From sequence record OL656110.1: a stretch of DNA of 64,000 nucleotides; one strand, given 5' to 3'. The notes beneath the pieces are model-generated. The model saw only the letters and a program-made list of their open reading frames with translations, had not been told where the DNA came from and did not search any database. This DNA is from Escherichia phage vB_EcoM-RPN242. This document shows, piece after piece, positions 1 to 53,149 of the stretch. The translations under genes were made by a program, and so were the position numbers. Every line of letters begins with the position of its first letter. Positions within the stretch are counted from its first letter, which is position 1.

Positions 1-820
1 TCCAGCGATCAATACCACCGTTGTACAGTACCGTCACAGGGAGCTTGGCTTTCTCTTTGACATGGCGACCTTTCATGATGCTTATGTTGAAGTTCCAACC
101 CAGCAGATCTTTGTCTTCCTTCACCTGAGAACGGGTGATAAACCAGATCAAGTTGGAGGATAAGAAGCCCTGTTTGCCGCCTTTGATGTTAGGCTCGGCA
201 TATTGGTTGCCGATCTCATCGTAATAGGAGTTGATCCAAACACACACGAGATTTTTGCTGTTGATTTCGGGAGTCATGACACGCCAGAAGCTGTTAAGGG
301 CACGGGCGCGGGTCATGTCCTGAGTGTCGTTCCCTTTGATCGCATCTTCAACTTCCTTGGTGGAGGGAAGTTGGCTGATAGAGTCGATGAAGATTATAAC
401 ATGGTCGCCTTTCTTGACTTCCTGTAGGATCTGCAGCAAGCGGATCTTGGTCTGTTCAACGTTGTCGATCGGTACGTACAGGACGCGGTCCATGTCAATG
501 CCCATAGAGGTCCAGTAATCGGCGTTGGCACCCTTTTCTGAGTCAGCAAATACACAGATAGCGTCAGGGAACTTGTCCATGTACGCCTTGACGTCCACCA
601 GACCGAACATCGTTTTGAAGGTACGGGAATCACCCACCATCATCTTGATACCGGAGATCAGACCGCCGTCAATACGCCCAGACCATGCGATATCGATCAG
701 GGGAATACCAGTAGAACAGATGATAGACGGTTCCAGAGCGTCGGATTTGGACAGCACTGAAGCCTGGTCATCGTGTTTCTTAGCAACCTTCAGCATGCGG
801 TCCATTAATGAACTGGCCAT
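1..820 (-). CDS. uvsX: UvsX-like RecA-family recombinase (partial; C-terminal end lies beyond window start)
   Basis: Manual minus-strand translation from ATG at 820 gives MASSLMDRMLKVAKK...GIPLIDIAWSG...MMVGDSRTFKT...VCVFADSE..., collinear with T4 UvsX; no in-frame stop before position 1; AGGAAG RBS upstream. Not in ORF track because incomplete. Confidence 0.85.
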   Translation of the reverse strand, partial: MASSLMDRMLKVAKKHDDQASVLSKSDALEPSIICSTGIPLIDIAWSGRIDGGLISGIKMMVGDSRTFKTMFGLVDVKAYMDKFPDAICVFADSEKGANADYWTSMGIDMDRVLYVPIDNVEQTKIRLLQILQEVKKGDHVIIFIDSISQLPSTKEVEDAIKGNDTQDMTRARALNSFWRVMTPEINSKNLVCVWINSYYDEIGNQYAEPNIKGGKQGFLSSNLIWFITRSQVKEDKDLLGWNFNISIMKGRHVKEKAKLPVTVLYNGGIDRW

Positions 821-6377: not shown

Positions 6378-7082
6378 CTATTTCTTCTTATGCATACGAC
6401 GTGCATCTTTCCACACAGACATCTGGCTCTGTTTCTGGAAGCGGGCAGTGCGCATGAAGAGAACGATCTCCCAGTACTGTGGCTCAATCTCGTAAAGCTG
6501 TGAACGGAACTGATCGGCGCGGTACAGCTTCACACAGTGATTGTACAGCGGATGGTTGGCGAAGCGCTTCAGGGCTTCCCAGGTGAGCTTCAGACGCGTC
6601 TTTGAGCGGTATGCCCGTTCGTTACGCAACTTGATCAGATCCTCAAACACCAACAGCCTGAGCTTTGGTGGCAGGTAGTGCATGTTGAGTCCCCAGAGGT
6701 ATGTTACACCCTTCTCTCCAAAGGTGATACCATCACCCTTGACAAAGTTGAAGAAGAACACCAGAGGGTACATATCCCAGTAGGGTAGTTCATTCTTCGT
6801 CAGAGCATCATATTTGAAATAGAACATACGCCCGACTATATACCGCACACCTTGTACCGGACGTTTGTGATCAGCAAACGCCTGTTTCATATGGTTGGGA
6901 CTCAGGTTGGCGTCCTTAGACACACGCTCCATGAACCACACATGCGAACGGCGGATGTTACGCTTCGCCTCTGGACCGAAGTGTTGACGGTACTTGCGGA
7001 TGTAACGCTTGACCAGCTCGGGGGCGTCCATCTCGGCCGGAAACAGCAACGGATCTTCTTCGCCAGCTGCATTCTTTGCCAT
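6378..7082 (-). CDS. hypothetical protein (234 aa, basic C-terminus)
   Basis: Complete ORF with ATG start; divergent from the plus-strand late gene at 7136. Confidence 0.6.
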   Translation of the reverse strand: MAKNAAGEEDPLLFPAEMDAPELVKRYIRKYRQHFGPEAKRNIRRSHVWFMERVSKDANLSPNHMKQAFADHKRPVQGVRYIVGRMFYFKYDALTKNELPYWDMYPLVFFFNFVKGDGITFGEKGVTYLWGLNMHYLPPKLRLLVFEDLIKLRNERAYRSKTRLKLTWEALKRFANHPLYNHCVKLYRADQFRSQLYEIEPQYWEIVLFMRTARFQKQSQMSVWKDARRMHKKK

Positions 7083-7093
7083 TTGTCAACTCC

Positions 7094-7101
7094 TATAAAT
7101 A
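7094..7101 (+). promoter_or_regulatory. T4-type late promoter box TATAAATA
   Basis: Exact TATAAATA on plus strand about 35 nt upstream of the 7136 start; a gp55-like late sigma is encoded in the window. Confidence 0.55.
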
Positions 7102-7135
7102 ATAACAGTTATTTTATTTAAGTGGAGTCCTCATC

Positions 7136-8080
7136 GTGGAAGACTATCGCAATTTTATCACACAGATGTTACAGCGGGGCTTGTCGCGCAAGAACCGCTT
7201 CAGAGTGACCATCCCTCTACCACCAGGGATCTTTGACTCCAATGCCACTCTGGCTAATGACGGAAAGGCGTACAGAACCAATTCATCTTTTGGTGACTTG
7301 TTTAAGCAGTCAGCCCGTATTGTAAACGCTTTCTTTGGAGGGACAAACCAGACGTCCCGTTCCCTTCAGATGATGTGTATGGTTGCCTCATTGCCAGGGG
7401 TTGGTATCGACACCACTCCAATGACAAACAACGGTAATCACATCAAGATGCCGAACAACAAGTCCAACGTCGACCTCGACTTGTCATTCTTATTAGCCAA
7501 TGACTATTATGAGAAGTCTGTGATGGACAAGTGGAAGAGTCTGATCTTTGATCCACACACCACCAAAATGGGATATTACGAAGACTTCGTGACTGACATA
7601 TGCATTGAACAGCTTGACACCGAAGATCAAGTGGTCCACCGCGTCTACATCGTCGAGGCTCACCCAATAAATTTCAGTTCTATTGAGCTAGATAAAGGTG
7701 CCACAGACCAGTTCAACCAGTACAACATTTCTTTCTCTTACAACAAAGTGCTTTCGGAGACAGAATATGAAACACGCAGCCTTTCCAGCGATTTTCTTCC
7801 TCTCGGCATTGCTGACGCTCTTACCAGTGGTGACTGGGAAACTGCGGCCTCAAAAGCTGGACAGCTTTATCGCAAGGTGAAAGAAGGGAACTTCACAGGA
7901 GAGGCTCTCCTGGCTTACAAACAGCTTGACCAACTTGTAAACAACCTGGCTGGGATAAGCATACAGGACTTCGAGCGCATCTCGGTAGGTATCTCTCGTG
8001 ACATCATGGGTAACGATAACCTGACGGCGGCGGAGAAGACAAGCCTGTTGGGAATATTGCAAGACGTGATGGGGAAATAA
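7136..8080 (+). CDS. tail-tube-fold structural protein (T4 gp19/gp54 family-like)
   Basis: 314 aa; GTG start at 7136 preceded by GGAG; NRFRVTIPLPPGIF ... MMCMVASLPGVGIDTTP pattern resembles the gp19/gp54 family; late promoter upstream. Confidence 0.5.
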   Translation: MEDYRNFITQMLQRGLSRKNRFRVTIPLPPGIFDSNATLANDGKAYRTNSSFGDLFKQSARIVNAFFGGTNQTSRSLQMMCMVASLPGVGIDTTPMTNNGNHIKMPNNKSNVDLDLSFLLANDYYEKSVMDKWKSLIFDPHTTKMGYYEDFVTDICIEQLDTEDQVVHRVYIVEAHPINFSSIELDKGATDQFNQYNISFSYNKVLSETEYETRSLSSDFLPLGIADALTSGDWETAASKAGQLYRKVKEGNFTGEALLAYKQLDQLVNNLAGISIQDFERISVGISRDIMGNDNLTAAEKTSLLGILQDVMGK

Positions 8081-42988: not shown

Positions 42989-43180
42989 TTAGCGCATCCA
43001 TCGATCCTTTCTCTCTTTCTCCTTGCGTTCGCGACGTTTCTGGTCGGATCGTAATAACCAATAGAAGAAGTTCCCACCCAAGATGAAAACCACCGCGATT
43101 ATTACTAGGACACCCTTCACAATTTCCCAAACCAATTCTTTATCCAAATTACACCTCGTCTTCTTCAGGTCCACCGTCAA
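42989..43180 (-). CDS. possible small membrane protein (63 aa)
   Basis: Single TM-like segment plus basic C-terminus; track start is TTG and no upstream ATG exists. Confidence 0.25.
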   Translation of the reverse strand: MTVDLKKTRCNLDKELVWEIVKGVLVIIAVVFILGGNFFYWLLRSDQKRRERKEKERKDRWMR

Positions 43181-43436
43181 TCAGGATACGAGCGGTGTCG
43201 AAAGTTTCCCCGCCCGTGTTCAGCAGCTTGGTCAGATCGTCAAGATATCGGACCGTACCAAGATCAGATGACCGCGATATAAACTCCAGCATGCCATACA
43301 ACGCTGTTTGGAATCGGCTGTTATCGATATCGTTCTTTATTACCATCAGGCGCAAGATGTTCTCTGACTGAGTATGGTCAACACACGCCTTGTCTCTGAT
43401 CATCTCCTTGATAGAACTTCTCTCTGATGGTGTCAT
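43149..43436 (-). CDS. hypothetical protein (95 aa)
   Basis: Complete ORF with ATG start. Confidence 0.45.
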   Translation of the reverse strand: MTPSERSSIKEMIRDKACVDHTQSENILRLMVIKNDIDNSRFQTALYGMLEFISRSSDLGTVRYLDDLTKLLNTGGETFDTARILIDGGPEEDEV

Positions 43437-43807
43437 AACGTACCCCCGACAGAGATCAAGAACTCTTCTTGCATGGTCTTGACCGGGTGGTGGTTGCGGG
43501 TTTCGAACATGAAGCCCCAGCCACCGTCGGCGACGTTGCCAAAGGTCTTGACGCCAAAGGACTTCGTCCCGTTAGAGCAGGAATAGATGTCCAGGACGTA
43601 TGGGCTACCCTGATTGTCGATCCCACGATTCACGTCGTCTGATACGCAGCGCTCAATCATCTTCCCGTTCTTATACAGAACGAGGTCTTGGCCATACGCC
43701 TTGAAAGCATAAACACCGTTGGTAGACACTCCGGTGATGACAGGAGGGGCGGAAACAGCAGCAAAGGAAGCGCCCAGCAGAGCAACAGCGAGGATTAACT
43801 TTTTCAT
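43433..43807 (-). CDS. secreted hypothetical protein
   Basis: Start at ATG 43807 (MKKLILAVALLGASFAAVSA...) with AGAGACTATATC leader. Confidence 0.55.
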   Translation of the reverse strand: MKKLILAVALLGASFAAVSAPPVITGVSTNGVYAFKAYGQDLVLYKNGKMIERCVSDDVNRGIDNQGSPYVLDIYSCSNGTKSFGVKTFGNVADGGWGFMFETRNHHPVKTMQEEFLISVGGTL

Positions 43808-43866
43808 GATATAGTCTCTTGGTTTCAAATGGGCGGGGTAATCATACCCCGCCCAAAGTTATAGAA

Positions 43867-44106
43867 TTAACTGATGTGCTTCAGAAGAGCGAAGAGGATC
43901 GCGGCCTTGGCCTTTACCTTTCCCACGATGCCTGTCTCGACATCAACTTCTTCAGCAACCCACTCTTTGCCTTTCTTGCTGATGATCACGTCACGGCGCT
44001 GTGCGTAGACTTCTTTGGTCGCATACACACGACGGAACCCTTTAGCGCGGAGCAATCCCCAATTACGATCAATTTCTACTGAGGTTTCTACCATTTTGTT
44101 CTTCAT
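43867..44106 (-). CDS. hypothetical protein (79 aa)
   Basis: Complete ORF with ATG start. Confidence 0.45.
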   Translation of the reverse strand: MKNKMVETSVEIDRNWGLLRAKGFRRVYATKEVYAQRRDVIISKKGKEWVAEEVDVETGIVGKVKAKAAILFALLKHIS

Positions 44107-44189
44107 GATATAATCTTACCTTTCAACCCGGTGAACCCATCGTTCGCCAGTTATTGAATAATAGGACATTCCTTAGAGGAAGTAAACCC

Positions 44190-44223
44190 CTAAAAGTAAA
44201 AATCCCCAACGTTTGTTGGGGAC
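44190..44223 (-). terminator. rho-independent terminator
   Basis: tccccaac-gttt-gttgggga hairpin (44203..44222) followed on minus strand by TTTTTACTTTTA. Confidence 0.7.
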
Positions 44224-44228
44224 TTCTG

Positions 44229-44552
44229 TTATTTGCGCAGGGCAACCACGAGTTCAGCGAGTTCACCAATGGTCGGGTCATCACCTTTACTACCCAGCCA
44301 ACCGTCGTCGATTTCGACCTGAAACTCTTCTTCTAGTTCCATTACGATTTCGATGGCATCCAGTTCGTCACCGCCGAGGTCTTTCTTGGTACGGAGACCA
44401 GCCAGCTTGTCCAGGGCGTCCTCGTTCTGAGATGCCACGTCGTCCAGCAATTTGCGCTTGTCATCGTCACGCCACAGATCCATATTCAGATTGTCAGTGG
44501 CGTACTGAGCCAGATGACGCATGACTTCAACATATGTTGGTTTACTGCTCAT
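44229..44552 (-). CDS. acyl-carrier-protein-fold protein lacking the phosphopantetheine serine (DSL -> DEL)
   Basis: 107 aa; KKDLGGDELDAIEIVMELEEEFQVEIDD parallels E. coli ACP [27 protein letters not shown]; DNA reads gac-gaa-ctg-gat, so Glu replaces the carrier Ser. Confidence 0.55.
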   Translation of the reverse strand: MSSKPTYVEVMRHLAQYATDNLNMDLWRDDDKRKLLDDVASQNEDALDKLAGLRTKKDLGGDELDAIEIVMELEEEFQVEIDDGWLGSKGDDPTIGELAELVVALRK

Positions 44553-44555
44553 GCT

Positions 44556-44590
44556 ACTTCTCCCAAAGAAAGGCGGGTTGCCCCGCCCGT
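44556..44590 (-). terminator. hairpin terminator/attenuator in leader of ACP-like gene
   Basis: ggcggg-ttgcc-cccgcc hairpin (44572..44588) followed on minus strand by CTTTCTTTGGG, about 20 nt upstream of the ATG at 44552. Confidence 0.5.
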
Positions 44591-44594
44591 TGGA

Positions 44595-46796
44595 TTAGAT
44601 TTTGATTTCTTTCTCTGTCAGTTCGGCAGTGACCTTGTACTTCACGCCATCCACTTCAACTTCCATGGTGGACTCTTCCAGGTCGAGGTCGGTGAACCAG
44701 CCGTGGCCAGCAACGATACCATACACCACTTTAGACAGTGTCTTGTTCAGGGCACGGACTTCGGTGATGGCCGCCTTGGCAGCAGCGTCGATCCAGTTTT
44801 CGATCAGCTGTTTCTGTAAGGCTTCAGGCACGGCAGTGATCATAGGAGACTTCACGAATGCTTCGTACTCTTTCAGAGCATTGGCGATGAACAAGTCACC
44901 AGCATTGAGTTTCTTGTTCTCTGCGATCTTCTTCTGTACTGCCGCGATGCTCGGTAGTGAAGACGCCCCGGCGATCTTCACGTTCAGCTCACGGCTCATG
45001 TAGAAGTCGGTAGACTCTTTGGTCTCAGTCTTCGGTGAGAAGCCGTAATCGCGGATGCCGTAGGAGGACAGGAACTCGGCCGCCTCAGCGCCGTACTGTA
45101 CTGCCAGGCCTTTGGCGTTACCCTTACCAACCAGGGCGTCTCGATAGAACTTCAGCACCTTCTGCTTGCCTTTCAGGGCTTCCAGACGGACATTATCCGC
45201 AAAGAACTGAGCAGCACTGATGTTCTTGACCATGGCGCGGTTGACCAGCGGTACGCTTTCCAGGTTCAGGACAAACACTTCCGGACCACCAAACACGTGG
45301 ACGCCCATTTCGATCAGCTTCTGTACAACTTCGATATCAGCCTTGAACGGCAGAGTCTTCACGTTAATGATACCGTCTTTGACGATGGTGTAGTTGCGCC
45401 ACTGGAAAGTATCCAGTTCTTCAGGCAGGCCAAACTTCTTCTGTGCGAATTCAGGCACAGCCACAGTACCGTGTTGAATTGTACGCACACTGATGTTCGG
45501 GCGCTCGGAGTTATAGACCAAATCACTGATTGGCACAACACCCAGATCGTTGGTAGGTTCGAACGTCGGGTTCCACTCTTCGTGCTCTGCCAGCTTGAGA
45601 GCCAGGGCTTTACGCTCTTCTTTGGACTGAGCATTCGCGATCTGTTCTGCCAGCTTGTCTTCGGTGTCGTCGGTTTTCTGCACAGTACCGCGCCCGATGC
45701 TCTTGTAGGAGAACATCGGATGCTTGGTAGCAACAGGCACACCAGCTTCAGCCAGGTACGTCAGAACATCAACGACGGTCGTCGCATCTTCGGCCGGAAC
45801 CAGGTCATAGTCAATACCGTCAACGCCGCGCAGCTGGTCATCAACGATGGCCTGGGTCAGATCGTTCTTGATGTTGGAGTAGTCCTGCTTGGTGAAGCAG
45901 TTGCTGTACTGTTTGATGAAGCGAACGTCGCCCGTCTTCTTCAGCGCAGCCCAAACCAGATCTGCGTCCATAGTGTGTACGCCGTAGAACGCCAGCACGT
46001 ATGCCGCCTGGATGTCCGCCAGGCTATCCATCTGGTCGATCATGTTAGGGTTTACAACCCACAGCTTGGTGACGCTCTCAGGGATGCTCACGTGGCCGAT
46101 AGGATGGTCTTCATCCGGCTGTACCGCCAGAACAGTTGCTACGCCGTTTTCAACATAGATAGCGTGGGTGTATAGCAGAGGCACATCAACAACCACCTTC
46201 GGTACTGATGACTTCAGCACGTTTTCCAGTTCGGTCTGGTATTCGGTCTGACCTTCGGCAAACACGTGAGTAGCACCAGAGCGTTCGGCCATCTGCGTCA
46301 GCAGTTCACGGTTACAGTGCCAGCCGTATTCGATAAATGTAATGTTATCGAAAGCAAATGGCAGGGTCTCAGCAACCAGTAGAATTTCGTTGGTACGCCA
46401 GCAGTTGTCATACCCGTCAGTCATGAACGCCAGGTTGTTGACGTAGCCAGGTTTCTTCAGGTCACGCGCAGTATCCATCGCCAGTTTCAATGGCTCAACG
46501 AATCCAGTACATCCGGACGGTTGCAGGAAGCGATCGATCAGTTTGTTCAGCTCGCTCAGGTCAGACGCAGCACCAACCTGGCGGCCAGCGAACACAGTGC
46601 CAAAGTCGCCTTTGGATGAGAAGTATAGAACACTTACAGTGTCTTCCGGTTTCACCAGGGAAGGCAGGTTCTCCTTCAGGTGCTTGCGGACTTCAGGAAG
46701 CGCACGGTACATAGAGCCGGAAATGTCTACAACGATTACATGGTTGGACGGAGCAGCAGTCGCAACCGCATTCTTAAATTCTAATGATTCAATCAT
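44595..46796 (-). CDS. large von Willebrand factor A (MIDAS) domain protein
   Basis: 733 aa from ATG 46796 (MIESLEFKN...); N-terminal vWA motifs HVIVVDISGSM (DxSxS) and FMTDGYDN; about 550 aa of unassigned C-terminal sequence. Confidence 0.65.
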   Translation of the reverse strand: MIESLEFKNAVATAAPSNHVIVVDISGSMYRALPEVRKHLKENLPSLVKPEDTVSVLYFSSKGDFGTVFAGRQVGAASDLSELNKLIDRFLQPSGCTGFVEPLKLAMDTARDLKKPGYVNNLAFMTDGYDNCWRTNEILLVAETLPFAFDNITFIEYGWHCNRELLTQMAERSGATHVFAEGQTEYQTELENVLKSSVPKVVVDVPLLYTHAIYVENGVATVLAVQPDEDHPIGHVSIPESVTKLWVVNPNMIDQMDSLADIQAAYVLAFYGVHTMDADLVWAALKKTGDVRFIKQYSNCFTKQDYSNIKNDLTQAIVDDQLRGVDGIDYDLVPAEDATTVVDVLTYLAEAGVPVATKHPMFSYKSIGRGTVQKTDDTEDKLAEQIANAQSKEERKALALKLAEHEEWNPTFEPTNDLGVVPISDLVYNSERPNISVRTIQHGTVAVPEFAQKKFGLPEELDTFQWRNYTIVKDGIINVKTLPFKADIEVVQKLIEMGVHVFGGPEVFVLNLESVPLVNRAMVKNISAAQFFADNVRLEALKGKQKVLKFYRDALVGKGNAKGLAVQYGAEAAEFLSSYGIRDYGFSPKTETKESTDFYMSRELNVKIAGASSLPSIAAVQKKIAENKKLNAGDLFIANALKEYEAFVKSPMITAVPEALQKQLIENWIDAAAKAAITEVRALNKTLSKVVYGIVAGHGWFTDLDLEESTMEVEVDGVKYKVTAELTEKEIKI

Positions 46797-47004
46797 TGTT
46801 CTCTTCGCCTTGTGCGTAAGGGTTAAGTTCAGACTCATCAGCGGCTTCGATGCGCGTCTTTACAGAGTCCAGCATATTGTTGATAAACTCACGAGACTGC
46901 TCCAGCTGAGCCAAGAGCACATCCTTTGGAGCATAGTTCTGAATGCAAGCCGGAATACTTTCAGACGTCGCCTTCAGGTCGGTAAAACATTCTTTCAGTA
47001 TCAT
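46789..47004 (-). CDS. hypothetical protein (71 aa)
   Basis: Complete ORF with ATG start; overlaps vWA gene start by 8 nt. Confidence 0.45.
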   Translation of the reverse strand: MILKECFTDLKATSESIPACIQNYAPKDVLLAQLEQSREFINNMLDSVKTRIEAADESELNPYAQGEENND

Positions 47005-48833: not shown

Positions 48834-50852
48834 TTAGAACACAACTTTCACAGTGCGGTTGAACGAACCGCTCACCTTCACGAACACGTGGTTGCGTTGG
48901 GTGGTAGAGAAGCCCAGACCGGACAGCTGCTCAGTGCTTGGCTGTACTTTAATCTTACCACCTAACATTTCAAAAACCTTGCGGTGTTTATCAAGTTCCG
49001 GCTTCAGATATTCGTTATAGAAACCACGGGTGCCGACAGGGTTAGCACAACCTTCCAGGATGAAGAACACGTGCTTGTTGCCAGTCTGCTCGCCGTCCCA
49101 ATGGTTTGGTGAGTTCAGAACCAGCTGTACCTTCTGGAAGACGGAGGTCTTGATGCCCCAGATTTCCTGAGAGCGAGCGTCGTCTTTCAGGGTAGAACTG
49201 ATGTCAACCACCTGACCAGCGCGAACCTGAACCACAACAGCCAACGTGCGATCTTTGTTGCCCAGGCCAGGGTGTGAGAAGCGCTTAGTCTGGCCTTTGT
49301 ATTCAACTTCGATTTCGAAACCAACGTCACAGGTTTCACGCTTGTTGAAGTTGGTGACATAGAACTCATAATTCCCGTCACGCAACTTGCGTTCATCGCT
49401 AAAGAAGATGTTCTCCACCGGACGGCGGTTTGGATCAATGCCGTCCATACCGTTCATGTCGATGTCCAGAGTTGCGCCAGTTGTCGAACGACGGTTGCGA
49501 AAATATACGTGGTTGTGAAGAGGATCGTTCATGCTCAGATCCAGGTCGTCGTTGTTATGCCAAGCCAGTGACACGCGGAGGAAGCTGTCGACATTGCCGC
49601 CTGCGGTCTTCACGCGCTCTTTGATGGAGTCGGCCACTTCGCCATTGTACGACCAGCTGAAGCCGTTGTTCCACTTGAACAGGTTAGGAGCGCCTGCGGT
49701 AGCCGGAGCGATCAGGGACATCAGGTTGCCAATGTGAGAGTTTTCGACCAGCACTTCTAGGGAATGCGCCTTTGGCAACACGTTGGTCAGGAAGTCGTCG
49801 ATCGTGATCTCTTCAACCTTGTCCAGGGACTTTGTCGGAGTCTTCACTTCAGACGCCAGCTGAGCAAACGGGTCCATCTTCTTCTGAGCTGCCAGATCGG
49901 CGAACAGAACGTTGTTGATGGTCAGATCGTCATACACGGCATAACGGCGACCCAGTGAATCAGTCAGACCCAGCGCTTCGACTTCTTTCTGCGCGTTTTC
50001 AATCATCGACTTCGTGACCAGCGCGGTTGGGCGCTTGTAGTTCGTCGGAGCGACTTTGGCTTCAAAGGACTTCACGGCGGTTTCCAGATCCCGGCCTTCA
50101 TTGAGGTCTACCAGCAGAGAGCCAATCACGGTATTACGAATGCCGTGAGGGGTATGACCGTTTGCACGGTAGCCAGTGCGCCAAGCCCACAGAGCGCGTT
50201 TCTCTTCTGCAGTTTGTTCGTACAGGGTCTTGTTCACCACGAACGCCTGCACTGCCGCTTTGTGCTCTTCACCGCGATACAGAGAATTCTGGTCGATCAA
50301 TTCCAGAACGATTTCAGCCGATTCCAGAGACAGTTCACGCAGGCCGCGCTCAAACACTTCAATCGCCTGGCGGATTTCACCCTTCTTAGAAGCGATGGTA
50401 TCTGCCCGCAGAACATAGCTGCTCAGCAGGTCGGTGTGGAAGTGGTTGTAGGTGCGGACAATACCGTCTTTCATTTCGTGATTCGACCCAACACCAACTT
50501 TCTTGGTGTCGTTGAAGTACACGTCGACGATTGCGTGCTGCTTAACATATGCTGACAGCGCCGCAGCGACAACGTCGTATTCGTTACCCAACTGAATGTT
50601 ATCCCAGATAGAGATCACGTTCAGGTCGGAGTCGATGGTGACCACACCGCCGATGTTACGGATGAATTGTTTACAGCAGGTGCAGTCGTGCTCGGTACGC
50701 TCACGATAAAGCGGGTTAGTGCCAGCAGGGAAAGAAGACAGATACAGATCCCACAGAGCATCTTTATCGATGTTGGTCATGAACAGACCAGTTGCTGACA
50801 TGGCCCGCACGTTATTGTTGACAGCTACTGCGAAGGACTTAAAATCTGACAT
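48834..50852 (-). CDS. large hypothetical protein (672 aa) with N-terminal Cys cluster
   Basis: ATG start with AGGAAGATTACATC leader; HDCTCCKQF near N-terminus; no Walker or polymerase motifs recognised. Confidence 0.7.
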   Translation of the reverse strand: MSDFKSFAVAVNNNVRAMSATGLFMTNIDKDALWDLYLSSFPAGTNPLYRERTEHDCTCCKQFIRNIGGVVTIDSDLNVISIWDNIQLGNEYDVVAAALSAYVKQHAIVDVYFNDTKKVGVGSNHEMKDGIVRTYNHFHTDLLSSYVLRADTIASKKGEIRQAIEVFERGLRELSLESAEIVLELIDQNSLYRGEEHKAAVQAFVVNKTLYEQTAEEKRALWAWRTGYRANGHTPHGIRNTVIGSLLVDLNEGRDLETAVKSFEAKVAPTNYKRPTALVTKSMIENAQKEVEALGLTDSLGRRYAVYDDLTINNVLFADLAAQKKMDPFAQLASEVKTPTKSLDKVEEITIDDFLTNVLPKAHSLEVLVENSHIGNLMSLIAPATAGAPNLFKWNNGFSWSYNGEVADSIKERVKTAGGNVDSFLRVSLAWHNNDDLDLSMNDPLHNHVYFRNRRSTTGATLDIDMNGMDGIDPNRRPVENIFFSDERKLRDGNYEFYVTNFNKRETCDVGFEIEVEYKGQTKRFSHPGLGNKDRTLAVVVQVRAGQVVDISSTLKDDARSQEIWGIKTSVFQKVQLVLNSPNHWDGEQTGNKHVFFILEGCANPVGTRGFYNEYLKPELDKHRKVFEMLGGKIKVQPSTEQLSGLGFSTTQRNHVFVKVSGSFNRTVKVVF

Positions 50853-50966: not shown

Positions 50967-51955
50967 TTATTCAGAAGAACCATATCGTTCTGTCCATTTA
51001 GGACATTTCAAAGGTTCCCACCCTCTATTGAAACGTTCGATAATGCTGTTTGTCGCATTAAAAGCCTTCAGGTCTTTTGTTCTGTACACATGCATGAGGG
51101 CTTCCGCTCTTTTCATTGTTTTTATTGCTTCAAGGAATTTATCAGCTTTTGACCAATACGCATCATTGTCGGGGTTCCATTTACCCTTCTCCCAAGGCAT
51201 CTTAGCCAACATGCCTTTCTGAGCGTTTTCTTTCTGTTTGGCGCGTTGCTCTGGTGTGAATGAGTTGGTTAAGTCCTTCCCATAATTGGGATTGAGTTCC
51301 CCAAGTTTAGCTTTACTGGCACGTTCAGAAAATTGTTCTAAATCTATGTTGGCGCGGCGTTTCTCTAAAACCCGCCTTTTATATTCAGGATCAGAAGCCA
51401 TCCTTTCATGGATTTTCATCAATCCTTTGGTAATTTTCTTGACTTGCTCTGGGGTTCTCTTATATCCATATTGGGGATTATTCTTTCCTCTTCTCCCATA
51501 CATTGGGTTGTTTGCCCCGACGCATTTGGAGACACCCTTTGTGAGTTTGGATATTCTTTGTCCAAATTCTTTCCTTAACTTTTCGTAAAGGTGAGAATTA
51601 AATTTTATACCCGTTGGTGTATACCTACCCCCACGGCTCATCAAAAGAACAGCATATACCATATCAGAATTCGGGAAAGCCAAGGCCAAGCATACATGGA
51701 CAAGATAATGTTGTCTGCCTGTTAATCGAACCAAATTTATCTTATCTTTAGAATATTCAGGGAACATGCTCTTGGGAAGGATGTGGTGCAATTCAGTGTA
51801 GTCACCATCAGAATATTTGAAAGATTGAACCATCATCAAATACTTCTTGATGAAATGCGGTTTACCGCCTTTAGAAATCAATAATTCGTAAAACATAACA
51901 GGAACTCCAAATGAAAGTTCCTGTTATAATATACTTTCTTAACTCACAAAGTAAG
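50860..51955 (-). mobile_element. free-standing homing-endonuclease insertion (candidate mobile element)
   Basis: AT-rich island holding only the HNH gene, inserted between two conserved-looking genes and bounded by intergenic AT-rich sequence on both sides. Confidence 0.45.
50967..51896 (-). CDS. HNH homing endonuclease with NUMOD-like repeats
   Basis: 309 aa; HNH core ELHHILPKS ... N ... H; repeated NPMYGRRGKNNPQYG and NPNYGK motifs; ATG start with GGAG RBS. Confidence 0.75.
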   Translation of the reverse strand: MFYELLISKGGKPHFIKKYLMMVQSFKYSDGDYTELHHILPKSMFPEYSKDKINLVRLTGRQHYLVHVCLALAFPNSDMVYAVLLMSRGGRYTPTGIKFNSHLYEKLRKEFGQRISKLTKGVSKCVGANNPMYGRRGKNNPQYGYKRTPEQVKKITKGLMKIHERMASDPEYKRRVLEKRRANIDLEQFSERASKAKLGELNPNYGKDLTNSFTPEQRAKQKENAQKGMLAKMPWEKGKWNPDNDAYWSKADKFLEAIKTMKRAEALMHVYRTKDLKAFNATNSIIERFNRGWEPLKCPKWTERYGSSE

Positions 51956-53149
51956 TTACTTTTTAAATAAATTTAGTAGGTTTTTAGAACCAGATGTCGC
52001 TTTAGGTTGTCCTTCCCCATCGTATCCAACCTTCCCGCGCGGTTTTTTACCTTGCTGTACAGCCTCTACACAACGGGTATATTTCTGAAGTTCACAAAAC
52101 ATATTTTCTCCTGCCATTATATTTAAATGGCGATCCCAAGGCTCTTCCACAGACCAAAATTCTTCCCTGTTATACCCAAGAGGACCATAAACTGCGTCCT
52201 GGTTGTCCCGTAGCCAGAAGATGCATTCTTCGTGGGTCATACCGTCTTTGTTCAGGAACAGCAGATCAATACCTGCGCGACAGCCTGGTCCAGCAACCGT
52301 GAAGTGGTTCTCACTGAAAGGATATTCAGGAATGTAAGTGAAGTCTACCCAGATCTGATAGGCCAGGAATGGACCAAGCCCTTCGATGTCGTCATACATG
52401 CGCTGGTATACTTCCAAAGGAGTACCAAGGCGCAGCAGGTCATGGAAATAATTTGGATACTTGTTGACGAATGCCTTCAGGGAGCGGATGACACGCATTG
52501 GCATGTACGGTTCCCAACCTTCGATGGTGTAGAAGTCCGGCTCTGCTTCGGCTATCGCCTTGGCTTCTTTATAATCCATGTTCTGGGTTGAACCGTCTTT
52601 ACAGATCAGATTCACCATCATCCCACCGAAGCGCTGCTCCTTGTGGTTGACAACCATCTCAGGGAAAGCCAGGCATTGCTTCAGGCCGCCCGTGTTGAAG
52701 GCATTGGTGAATACCTTACCGCCGTCGGCCTCGAACTTCTGAAGTCGTTCGCGGGTTGCATCGAGGTTGATCTCGGCGAATTCTTTGATCGTCATCGCGC
52801 CGCCGATAGCCTGGATTGGATCCCAGAGGTTGAACATGCGGAACATCACGCAGTTGAACATCTTGTCGGCCATACCCAGAGCATCGTTGTTGACAATGTT
52901 GTTGATCAGGTTGAGAGACTGCCTGTCGTGCTCTCTCCGGACATTACAGAACTTGACCTGCCGTAGTATGGGATTATCAGTCCAAGGAGCAGGAAGGCGC
53001 TGGACGTCCTTCTTGACGTGGATCTGATAACGATCGCGCATCCATTCGTAAGACAGGCGGGTATGGGTCGGACTGAGAACCGGTTTGGCCGACTTTATCT
53101 TTTCTTCACGGACACCGCAGTACGGGACGTCTAGGGCTTTATCTTTCAT
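51956..53149 (-). CDS. hypothetical enzyme-sized protein (397 aa)
   Basis: ATG start with AAGAGGATACC leader; no motif recognised. Confidence 0.65.
   Translation of the reverse strand: MKDKALDVPYCGVREEKIKSAKPVLSPTHTRLSYEWMRDRYQIHVKKDVQRLPAPWTDNPILRQVKFCNVRREHDRQSLNLINNIVNNDALGMADKMFNCVMFRMFNLWDPIQAIGGAMTIKEFAEINLDATRERLQKFEADGGKVFTNAFNTGGLKQCLAFPEMVVNHKEQRFGGMMVNLICKDGSTQNMDYKEAKAIAEAEPDFYTIEGWEPYMPMRVIRSLKAFVNKYPNYFHDLLRLGTPLEVYQRMYDDIEGLGPFLAYQIWVDFTYIPEYPFSENHFTVAGPGCRAGIDLLFLNKDGMTHEECIFWLRDNQDAVYGPLGYNREEFWSVEEPWDRHLNIMAGENMFCELQKYTRCVEAVQQGKKPRGKVGYDGEGQPKATSGSKNLLNLFKK

Follow-up and report, generated by a model that had tools for sequence, protein, structure and literature searches.

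Serine-less homologues of acyl carrier protein in Ackermannviridae phages keep the acidic docking helix and bear a carboxylate at the cofactor site

Escherichia phage vB_EcoM-RPN242 (sequence record OL656110.1) was analyzed over a stretch of 64,000 nucleotides, hereafter the window, which encodes on its minus strand a 107-residue protein related to acyl carrier protein (ACP). The protein, referred to as the ACP-like protein below, belongs to a family present in essentially all Ackermannviridae. It is a cofactor-less ('dead') ACP homologue, in which the ACP fold is accompanied by invariant acidic docking residues in helices II and III and the serine for phosphopantetheine attachment is replaced by glutamate. 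We infer that the protein functions purely by binding to another protein at a basic ACP-docking site. The gene family has already been catalogued and is not a new one; what is new is that a carboxylate consistently takes the place of the serine while the docking helix is kept.

The codon at the position of the attachment serine is GAA (Glu63; Table 1), which is at least two base changes away from every Ser codon, precisely as the initial annotation had stated. The site reads DLGGD-E-LDAIEIVMELEEEF in the phage protein versus DLGAD-S-LD in ACPs. Among the 50 cluster representatives, which extend down to 33% identity, the cofactor position was occupied by Glu in 43, by Asp in 7 and by Ser in none. 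The homologue of phage ViI reads GGDDLD. As Glu or Asp is fixed in all of the 50 representatives, the replacement can be attributed neither to chance nor to a sequencing error. The invariant columns of the family contain no Ser, and no Cys is conserved either. The sole invariant residue with a hydroxyl group is T94, which is aligned with the conserved Thr opening helix IV of ACPs. The earlier claim that the protein cannot be phosphopantetheinylated at the canonical site can thus be extended to the family, of which all 50 representatives bear Glu or Asp and share no alternative conserved Ser. Since the serine is always substituted and no other Ser is conserved, the alignment indicates that the family members cannot act as carriers of acyl groups. 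Either Glu or Asp is tolerated at position 63, and the carboxylate itself is apparently what matters.

The relationship to ACP was supported by several comparisons. The Pfam PP-binding model (PF00550) matched residues 58-102 with an E-value of 8.1e-7 and 29.6 bits (cut-off 20.8), and PHROG 4154, labelled 'acyl carrier protein', matched residues 1-107 on profile positions 1-108 of 108 with an E-value of 5.9e-57. The protein falls in no phage family with an unrelated known function. PF14573 scored 25.1 bits, under its threshold of 32, and all of the NCBIfam ACP models remained below their cut-offs (the best with 34.6 versus 70.45 bits, in a match confined to helix II). Among solved structures, the top match was the ACP of Bacillus subtilis (E = 5e-6), in an alignment that spans the prosthetic-group site and reads kkDLGgDeLDaiEiVMELEeEFqvEI on the phage side. 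The identity to Escherichia coli AcpP is 27% overall and 14 of 22 residues in the helix II region (AcpP 35-56). The initial annotation had placed the similarity in the C-terminal half of the protein. The similarity itself was borne out by the Pfam, PHROG and structural matches, whereas its restriction to the C-terminal half was not, as residues 7-21 align with helix I. The protein is acidic (isoelectric point 4.26; 27 Asp and Glu versus 13 Lys and Arg residues), and so are the canonical ACPs, AcpP of E. coli having an isoelectric point of 4.05.

A structural model built from the 28 close homologues only was unusable (predicted local distance difference test score, pLDDT, of 44). The second model, based on an alignment of 89 sequences that included canonical ACPs, reached a pLDDT of 82.5 and a predicted template modelling score of 0.75. 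A structure prediction yielding a non-ACP fold had been named as grounds for dropping the ACP assignment, and the second model shows a four-helix ACP fold. The whole of this fold, not only its C-terminal half, is thus predicted to be present (Table 1).

Table 1. Features of the ACP-like gene, its product and the adjoining genes (positions in the window unless given as residues of the ACP-like protein).
Feature	Position	Strand	Basis and remarks
Coding sequence of the serine-less ACP-fold protein, 107 amino acids	44229..44552	(-)	List of open reading frames (ORFs) and sequence
Glu63 codon GAA at the phosphopantetheine-attachment serine position (DSL to DEL)	44364..44366	(-)	Sequence; alignment to B. 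subtilis ACP and E. coli AcpP
Helix II, the ACP recognition helix, residues 62-77, DELDAIEIVMELEEEF	44322..44369	(-)	Invariant D62, L64, D65, I67, E68, E74, E76
Insertion of about 27 residues (24-50) between helix I and the loop preceding helix II	44403..44483	(-)	Alignment with canonical ACPs; two predicted extra helices
Loop W85-x-G87-x3-D91-D92-P93-T94 between helices III and IV	44271..44300	(-)	Invariant W85, G87, D91, D92, P93, T94 in the close family
Helix I	residues 7-21		Model
Insertion helices	residues 30-40 and 44-51		Model
Helix II	residues 63-77		Model
Helix III	residues 83-88		Model
Helix IV	residues 95-106		Model
Shine-Dalgarno-like GGGAGAAG, five bases 5' of the ATG	44557..44564	(-)	Sequence
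G+C-rich intercistronic hairpin directly after the stop codon of the vWA gene	44571..44588	(-)	Terminator scan; folding free energy (dG) = -18.3, z = -2.0
Intrinsic terminator, 13-bp stem followed by UUUUUACUUUU	44190..44227 (stem 44198-44227)	(-)	dG = -18.5 kcal/mol, z = -4.4
Protein with a von Willebrand factor type A (vWA) domain, 747-residue ORF	44595..46838	(-)	Pfam VWA; PHROG 2426
Small ORF, 71 amino acids, overlapping the start of the vWA gene	46789..47004	(-)	ORF list; sequence

In the complexes of ACPs with their enzymes, the acidic residues of helices II and III contact basic docking patches of the partner. These docking residues are located on the surface and come at a cost to fold stability. 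In the phage family, D62, D65, E68, E74, E76, I81 and D83 are invariant and correspond to D35, D38, E41, E47, E49, I54 and D56 of AcpP, respectively. E75 is nearly invariant, and the acidic recognition residues D35, D38, E41, E47 and E48 of AcpP are thus retained in helix II. The invariance of the docking residues in proteins that have no need for AcpS or acyl chemistry suggests that a docking function has been retained.

The close family has at least 30 invariant positions, a core of which is kept in the distant members. They comprise Y7, V10, M11, L14, Y17 and N21-L22-N23 in helix I and, besides the residues of the loop between helices III and IV (Table 1), R54, K56, L59-G60-G61-D62, L64, D65, I67, E68, E74, E76, I81 and D83. 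The insertion following helix I is found neither in canonical ACPs nor in the short homologue of Miltonvirus described below. The loop preceding helix IV is longer than that of AcpP, and a loop of the DDPT type was found in the distant members as well.

The region 43000-47000 of the window is 96.9% identical to Escherichia phage AV101 (Agtrevirus) and matched 263 phage records, nearly all of which are of Ackermannviridae infecting Salmonella, Klebsiella, Escherichia, Dickeya and Shigella. The source of the window is therefore an Agtrevirus-like phage of this family. The ACP-like gene was detected by tblastn in 271 phage records, in most of which it is annotated as 'acyl carrier protein'. The vWA gene next to it (see below) was found at 60% identity or more in about 269 records, so that the numbers for the two genes are very similar. 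We retrieved 39 cluster representatives with 58-96% identity from a large protein database; an exhaustive search with a profile then extended the set of full-length relatives to 33% identity. Features kept over this range suggest that the homologues have been under purifying selection. The homologue of Serratia phage 3M (gp097; distant genus Miltonvirus; contig L035, 5573-5845) comprises 90 residues without the insertion and the DDPT loop and reads DELD. A second Miltonvirus phage, phiMAM1, possesses a short DELD homologue as well. As the short Miltonvirus homologue is already of the DELD type, the loss of the serine is older than the other features specific to the family.

Beyond this family, DELD proteins of the size of ACP were found in five unrelated viral contigs (L021-L025) with the search pattern D[ED]LD. 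The search profile favored Glu at the cofactor position, so that the number of the DEL-type sequences cannot be read as a frequency. Apart from this gene, no gene family recurred among the neighborhoods in the five contigs, and none was common to them and the phage locus. In one of them, a 44.6-kb viral contig (L021), two ACP-like genes adjoin, of which the one at 6818-7075 reads DELD and the following one at 7083-7391 reads DSLD, so that a serine-less and a serine-bearing form are naturally paired; the Pfam search on their neighbors found a DNA methylase only. ACP-fold proteins with DELD or DDLD at the cofactor site exist also in bacteria. P0203 (L033, 7001-7483) reads DELD, bears a signal sequence of the lipoprotein type and adjoins argJ on a 1.17-Mb contig, and P0205 (L034, 2116-2469) reads DELD, bears a signal peptide and belongs to a methylcitrate operon, where prpC and prpD flank it. 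The N-termini of the two proteins contain lipobox-like AAGC/ATGC. Both appear from their sequences to be exported and cofactor-less, and thus look unlikely to be carriers. A scan for DEL-type relatives in bacterial genomes is uninformative, since its pattern matched ordinary helix II and every protein returned was a canonical DSL ACP.

Serine-bearing ACP homologues are also found in phages. ORF97 of Vibrio phage ICP1, the homologue of Vibrio phage helene 12B3 and gp58 of Pseudomonas phage pf16 resemble the present family in being small, stand-alone ACP-fold genes of large lytic phages labelled 'acyl carrier protein'. They differ from it in retaining D-S-L-D, which makes them modifiable in principle, and in belonging to other PHROG families. 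The pf16 protein (L037, 5963-6454) comprises 163 residues with a C-terminal extension. Compared with AcpP itself, the phage family shares the four-helix carrier-protein fold (PF00550) and the acidic recognition helix II, and differs in the Glu or Asp found in every representative, in the 27-residue insertion after helix I and in the longer W-x-G-x3-DDPT loop. The phage gene is moreover without accompanying genes for fatty-acid synthesis or a transferase, and its product stays under the NCBIfam equivalog cut-offs.

The gene lies in a region whose counterpart in the annotated relative Salmonella phage Maynard is a block of minus-strand genes of the early and middle classes, encoding helicases, clamp loader, RegA, MazG and recombination nucleases. 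The large vWA protein that had been reported beside it is indeed encoded on the same strand, 42 nucleotides upstream of and in the same reading frame as the ACP-like gene. The true start of this protein is probably Met15 (position 46796), which gives 733 residues and implies that the ORF is over-extended by 14 codons, because the homologues of 733-734 residues align from residue 8-14 and the start would overlap the 71-residue ORF by ATGA. Its metal-site motif (DISGS...T...D) is intact. The vWA family has about 730 residues, consisting of an N-terminal vWA domain and approximately 550 uncharacterized residues, and we found no solved relative of the protein. The small ORF, the vWA gene and the ACP-like gene appear to constitute one transcription unit. 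In phage Maynard, the same arrangement is bounded by annotated terminators.

The ribosome-binding site of the ACP-like gene is conserved in the relatives. The hairpin between the vWA and ACP-like genes had been taken as a leader hairpin of the latter. A conserved hairpin was confirmed, its stem being preserved by paired changes (GGCGGGG/CCCGCC, GCCGGGG/CCCGGC and GGGGGC/GCCCCC); the leader role was not, since a T-rich run follows on its 3' side at most loci and renders it terminator-like. In the fold of the window, an outer stem of the hairpin also sequesters the ribosome-binding site; as the relatives do not conserve this pairing, we rejected it as a feature of the locus. The strong terminator reported after the ACP-like gene was substantiated by its stability (Table 1), which none of 200 shuffled sequences equalled, and by its conservation in most relatives. 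On its 3' side lies a conserved promoter-like element, GGGGTTTACTTC, for the next gene. The motif AGGGGTTTACTTC at 44158-44190 (minus strand) follows the terminator directly, occurs at the same position in L002-L020, L026 and L027, and overlaps a sigma-70-like match (TTTACT-17-TATTAT) in the window. The motif may serve the next gene (43867-44106) as a conserved promoter. Searches with Rfam and PADLOC yielded nothing significant.

As the target of the docking helix, we tentatively favor one or more ACP clients of the host, with which the phage protein would act as a non-productive competitor of acyl- or holo-ACP. This reading is ranked first because the docking surface is kept, because the DEL-type homologues lack a conserved phage neighbor and because precedents exist. 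The phage protein would occupy the ACP-docking site of a host client and thereby compete with acyl-ACP or holo-ACP. With a carboxylate at position 63, helix II would keep the negative charge and the cap at its start, the phosphodiester of holo-ACP would be imitated, and AcpS would not recognize the protein, so that neither a drain on coenzyme A nor acylation would result. The insertion (residues 24-50) and the W-x-G-x3-DDPT loop probably tune the choice of the partner. The distance between the DELD gene and the vWA gene in Miltonvirus, where three ORFs lie between the two, also argues for a target in the host.

A decoy of this kind fits the invariance of the acidic residues in helix II and the toxicity of obligate apo-ACP in E. 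coli, which is documented by Keating et al. (1995) and by a result with S39A, both as reported in PMC4736557. Obligate apo-ACP, that is, overproduced AcpP or the Ser-to-Ala mutants, resembles the phage protein in being unmodifiable with an intact docking helix, and by analogy may serve as a functional model for the phage decoy. In contrast to these laboratory constructs of the host ACP, however, the phage protein is 27% identical to AcpP and carries extra elements. The mitochondrial ACP of Plasmodium falciparum is a natural parallel: it has the ACP fold, has lost the serine and, like the phage family, is retained under selection. It serves as a binding subunit for Isd11-Nfs1, with the acidic residues of helix II mediating the contact (PMC8547962). 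In the ACP-Isd11 complex, the phosphate touches an Arg of the partner (PMC8547962). The replacement in apicomplexans is hydrophobic (Phe in Plasmodium, Cys/Gly in Toxoplasma) and reaches into a hydrophobic pocket on the partner, whereas the phage replacement is always a carboxylate. The partner in Plasmodium is an LYR protein, while no LYR family match was found among the Pfam-scanned neighbors of the phage gene. Beyond Apicomplexa, that study reports serine-less ACPs in a chromerid only (PMC8547962), whereas the present family is viral.

Several observations weigh against a decoy for host clients. In the comparison with solved structures, the ACPs of B. subtilis, plastids and mitochondria matched better than enterobacterial AcpP, which gives no hint that the host protein was mimicked recently. 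The acidic helix II would suit docking on a phage-encoded partner equally well, and the insertion and the altered loop between helices III and IV may block the binding of classical ACP clients. Glu or Asp could simply be the best structural substitute for a helix-capping Ser. Finally, the ACPs in the modelling alignment bias the model towards the ACP fold; the evidence at the sequence level is independent of it.

The main rival to a host decoy is that the protein docks on the upstream 733-residue vWA protein as its dedicated subunit or adaptor, which we deem less likely. In such an assembly, the carboxylate at position 63 possibly completes the metal coordination of the vWA domain, as acidic ligands do for integrin I-domains, a variant with which the conservation of the DxSxS...T...D motif across the vWA family and the acceptance of both Glu and Asp at position 63 agree. 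Mitochondrial complexes that contain ACP as a structural subunit would be a parallel to such an assembly. The ACP-like gene lies on the same strand within about 45 nucleotides downstream of the vWA gene at each of the 23 loci that have a full-length member, including contigs L026 and L028 in which the identity of the ACP-like protein is only 33-39%. The two genes and the small ORF form a terminator-bounded unit in phage Maynard and here. Both proteins of phage Sajous1 (gp186, ACP-like; gp185, vWA) were recovered from a single preparation of CsCl-purified virions by one mass spectrum each (PMC10892097), which is weak evidence of expression and none for a role in the virion. Nevertheless, the gene order of the entire region is conserved in the family, so that adjacency is weak evidence for a partnership, and a terminator-like hairpin separates the two genes. 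In Miltonvirus, the ACP-like gene follows the vWA gene only after about 0.9 kb with three small ORFs, and elsewhere no vWA gene adjoins the ACP-like genes of the DEL type. Conversely, the vWA family is the wider one, with 503 phage records from both Ackermannviridae and Straboviridae and a few bacterial genomes. Its members in Straboviridae (RB16 and Slopekvirus), in Vibrio and Shewanella phages and in the bacteria have no ACP-like neighbor; none was found beside the distant vWA homologues of Vibrio phage VmeM-32, Shewanella phage Thanatos-1, Novimethylophilus and RB16. The metal site must therefore have another ligand in these proteins.

The remaining explanations rank lower than both a host decoy and a vWA subunit. 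It is improbable that the protein is an acidic mimic of DNA or RNA, such as an anti-restriction or anti-defence protein like Ocr or ArdA. Like these early-expressed proteins of phages or plasmids, it is small and very acidic; it is encoded among early and middle replication genes, and the phage invests heavily in restriction evasion, a gene for 5-hydroxymethyldeoxyuridine (5-hmdU) DNA kinase being located 7.4 kb away. Nonetheless, the acidic residues conserved in the family coincide exactly with those of the ACP docking helix and form no new charge pattern, the folds of Ocr and ArdA are unrelated, and no match in sequence or structure to known DNA mimics and no significant PADLOC hit was found. 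The nucleic-acid mimic suggested in the initial annotation is thus left with nothing specific beyond an acidity common to all ACPs. Still less credible is a protein that remains a carrier in a phage biosynthetic pathway by the modification of another residue or with another prosthetic group. The annotation of most records, the score above the Pfam PP-binding threshold and the serine-bearing homologues of ICP1, helene 12B3 and pf16 would be in line with a carrier, whereas the family has no conserved Ser or Cys, its NCBIfam score is far under the ACP cut-off and no acyl-handling enzyme is encoded in the gene neighborhood. Likewise, tblastn detected no AcpS-type transferase in the Ackermannviridae records, with a probe that did recover annotated acpS genes; Sfp-type transferases were not searched for. 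The least probable explanation is that an ACP gene was once captured and is now decaying without a function. The residue essential for the carrier role has indeed been lost, but the ORF is intact and full-length in about 270 phage genomes, the invariant core persists in the distant members, and the ribosome-binding site and the terminator are conserved. Given this pattern of conservation, we regard the idea of a remnant as effectively refuted.

Other genes in the window were noted as follows. The kinase gene (51956-53149, minus strand) encodes a 397-residue protein matching Pfam HMUDK_hel (5-hmdU DNA kinase; E = 1.8e-78), and corresponds to gp67 of phage ViI in the pathway of thymidine hypermodification (PMC8989533). 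From this match, the phage DNA very probably contains hypermodified thymidine. A link of the ACP-like gene to the hypermodification was considered and rejected, as the published pathway contains neither a carrier nor a vWA protein (PMC8989533). At 48834-50852 (minus strand), there is a gene for a 672-residue protein of PHROG 1735 without Pfam, NCBIfam or PADLOC matches. Its family is widespread in large phages of very different kinds and covers 552 phage records with 38-50% identity, including phiCbK-like Caulobacter phages, Pseudomonas phages pf16 and Lu11, Bacillus phage BCP12 and phages of Vibrio and Aeromonas, and one of the records is labelled 'DNA-directed RNA polymerase'. In pf16, the ACP gene is located about 550 bp upstream of the 672-residue homologue. 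We rejected a link between the two, as the pf16 ACP keeps its Ser and the homologue of Caulobacter phage Ccr10 has no ACP nearby; the arrangement is probably coincidental. Between the 672-residue and kinase genes lies a 309-residue ORF (50967-51896, minus strand) with a NUMOD3 motif of the homing-endonuclease type. Because a homing endonuclease flanks the kinase gene on the opposite side in phage Maynard, the NUMOD3 ORF is suggested to be a mobile insertion that differs between relatives.

Within the papers that could be searched, the ACP-like gene was mentioned only as 'acyl carrier protein' in annotation tables (PMC3220722 and PMC10892097), and neither a mention of the missing serine in this family nor a study of a phage ACP mimic was found. 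The gene is also filed as an auxiliary metabolic gene. The label is wrong for the family and misleads metabolic interpretation. This matters in practice, as Ackermannviridae are widely used in the biocontrol of Salmonella, E. coli O157, Klebsiella and Dickeya. Serine-less ACPs had been regarded as limited to apicomplexan mitochondria and a chromerid (PMC8547962), a picture that is broadened by the conserved phage family and by the Glu/Asp variants of other phages and of apparently exported proteins of bacteria. The protein also offers a testable lead, as so small a protein may inhibit or redirect an ACP-dependent process of the host, or may reveal the role of the phage vWA protein. On a broader and more doubtful scale, the cofactor-less ACP mimics of Ackermannviridae and of scattered other phages may form a dedicated class, with a Glu or Asp that imitates the phosphodiester of holo-ACP, and may usurp or block an ACP-reading hub of the host, for which phospholipid synthesis by PlsB, the control of guanosine tetraphosphate (ppGpp) by SpoT, MukB, IscS and the acyltransferases of lipid A would be candidates. 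If true, such a class of mimics would represent a mechanism of host takeover that has not been described before, and hundreds of the 'acyl carrier protein' annotations in phages would be functionally wrong.

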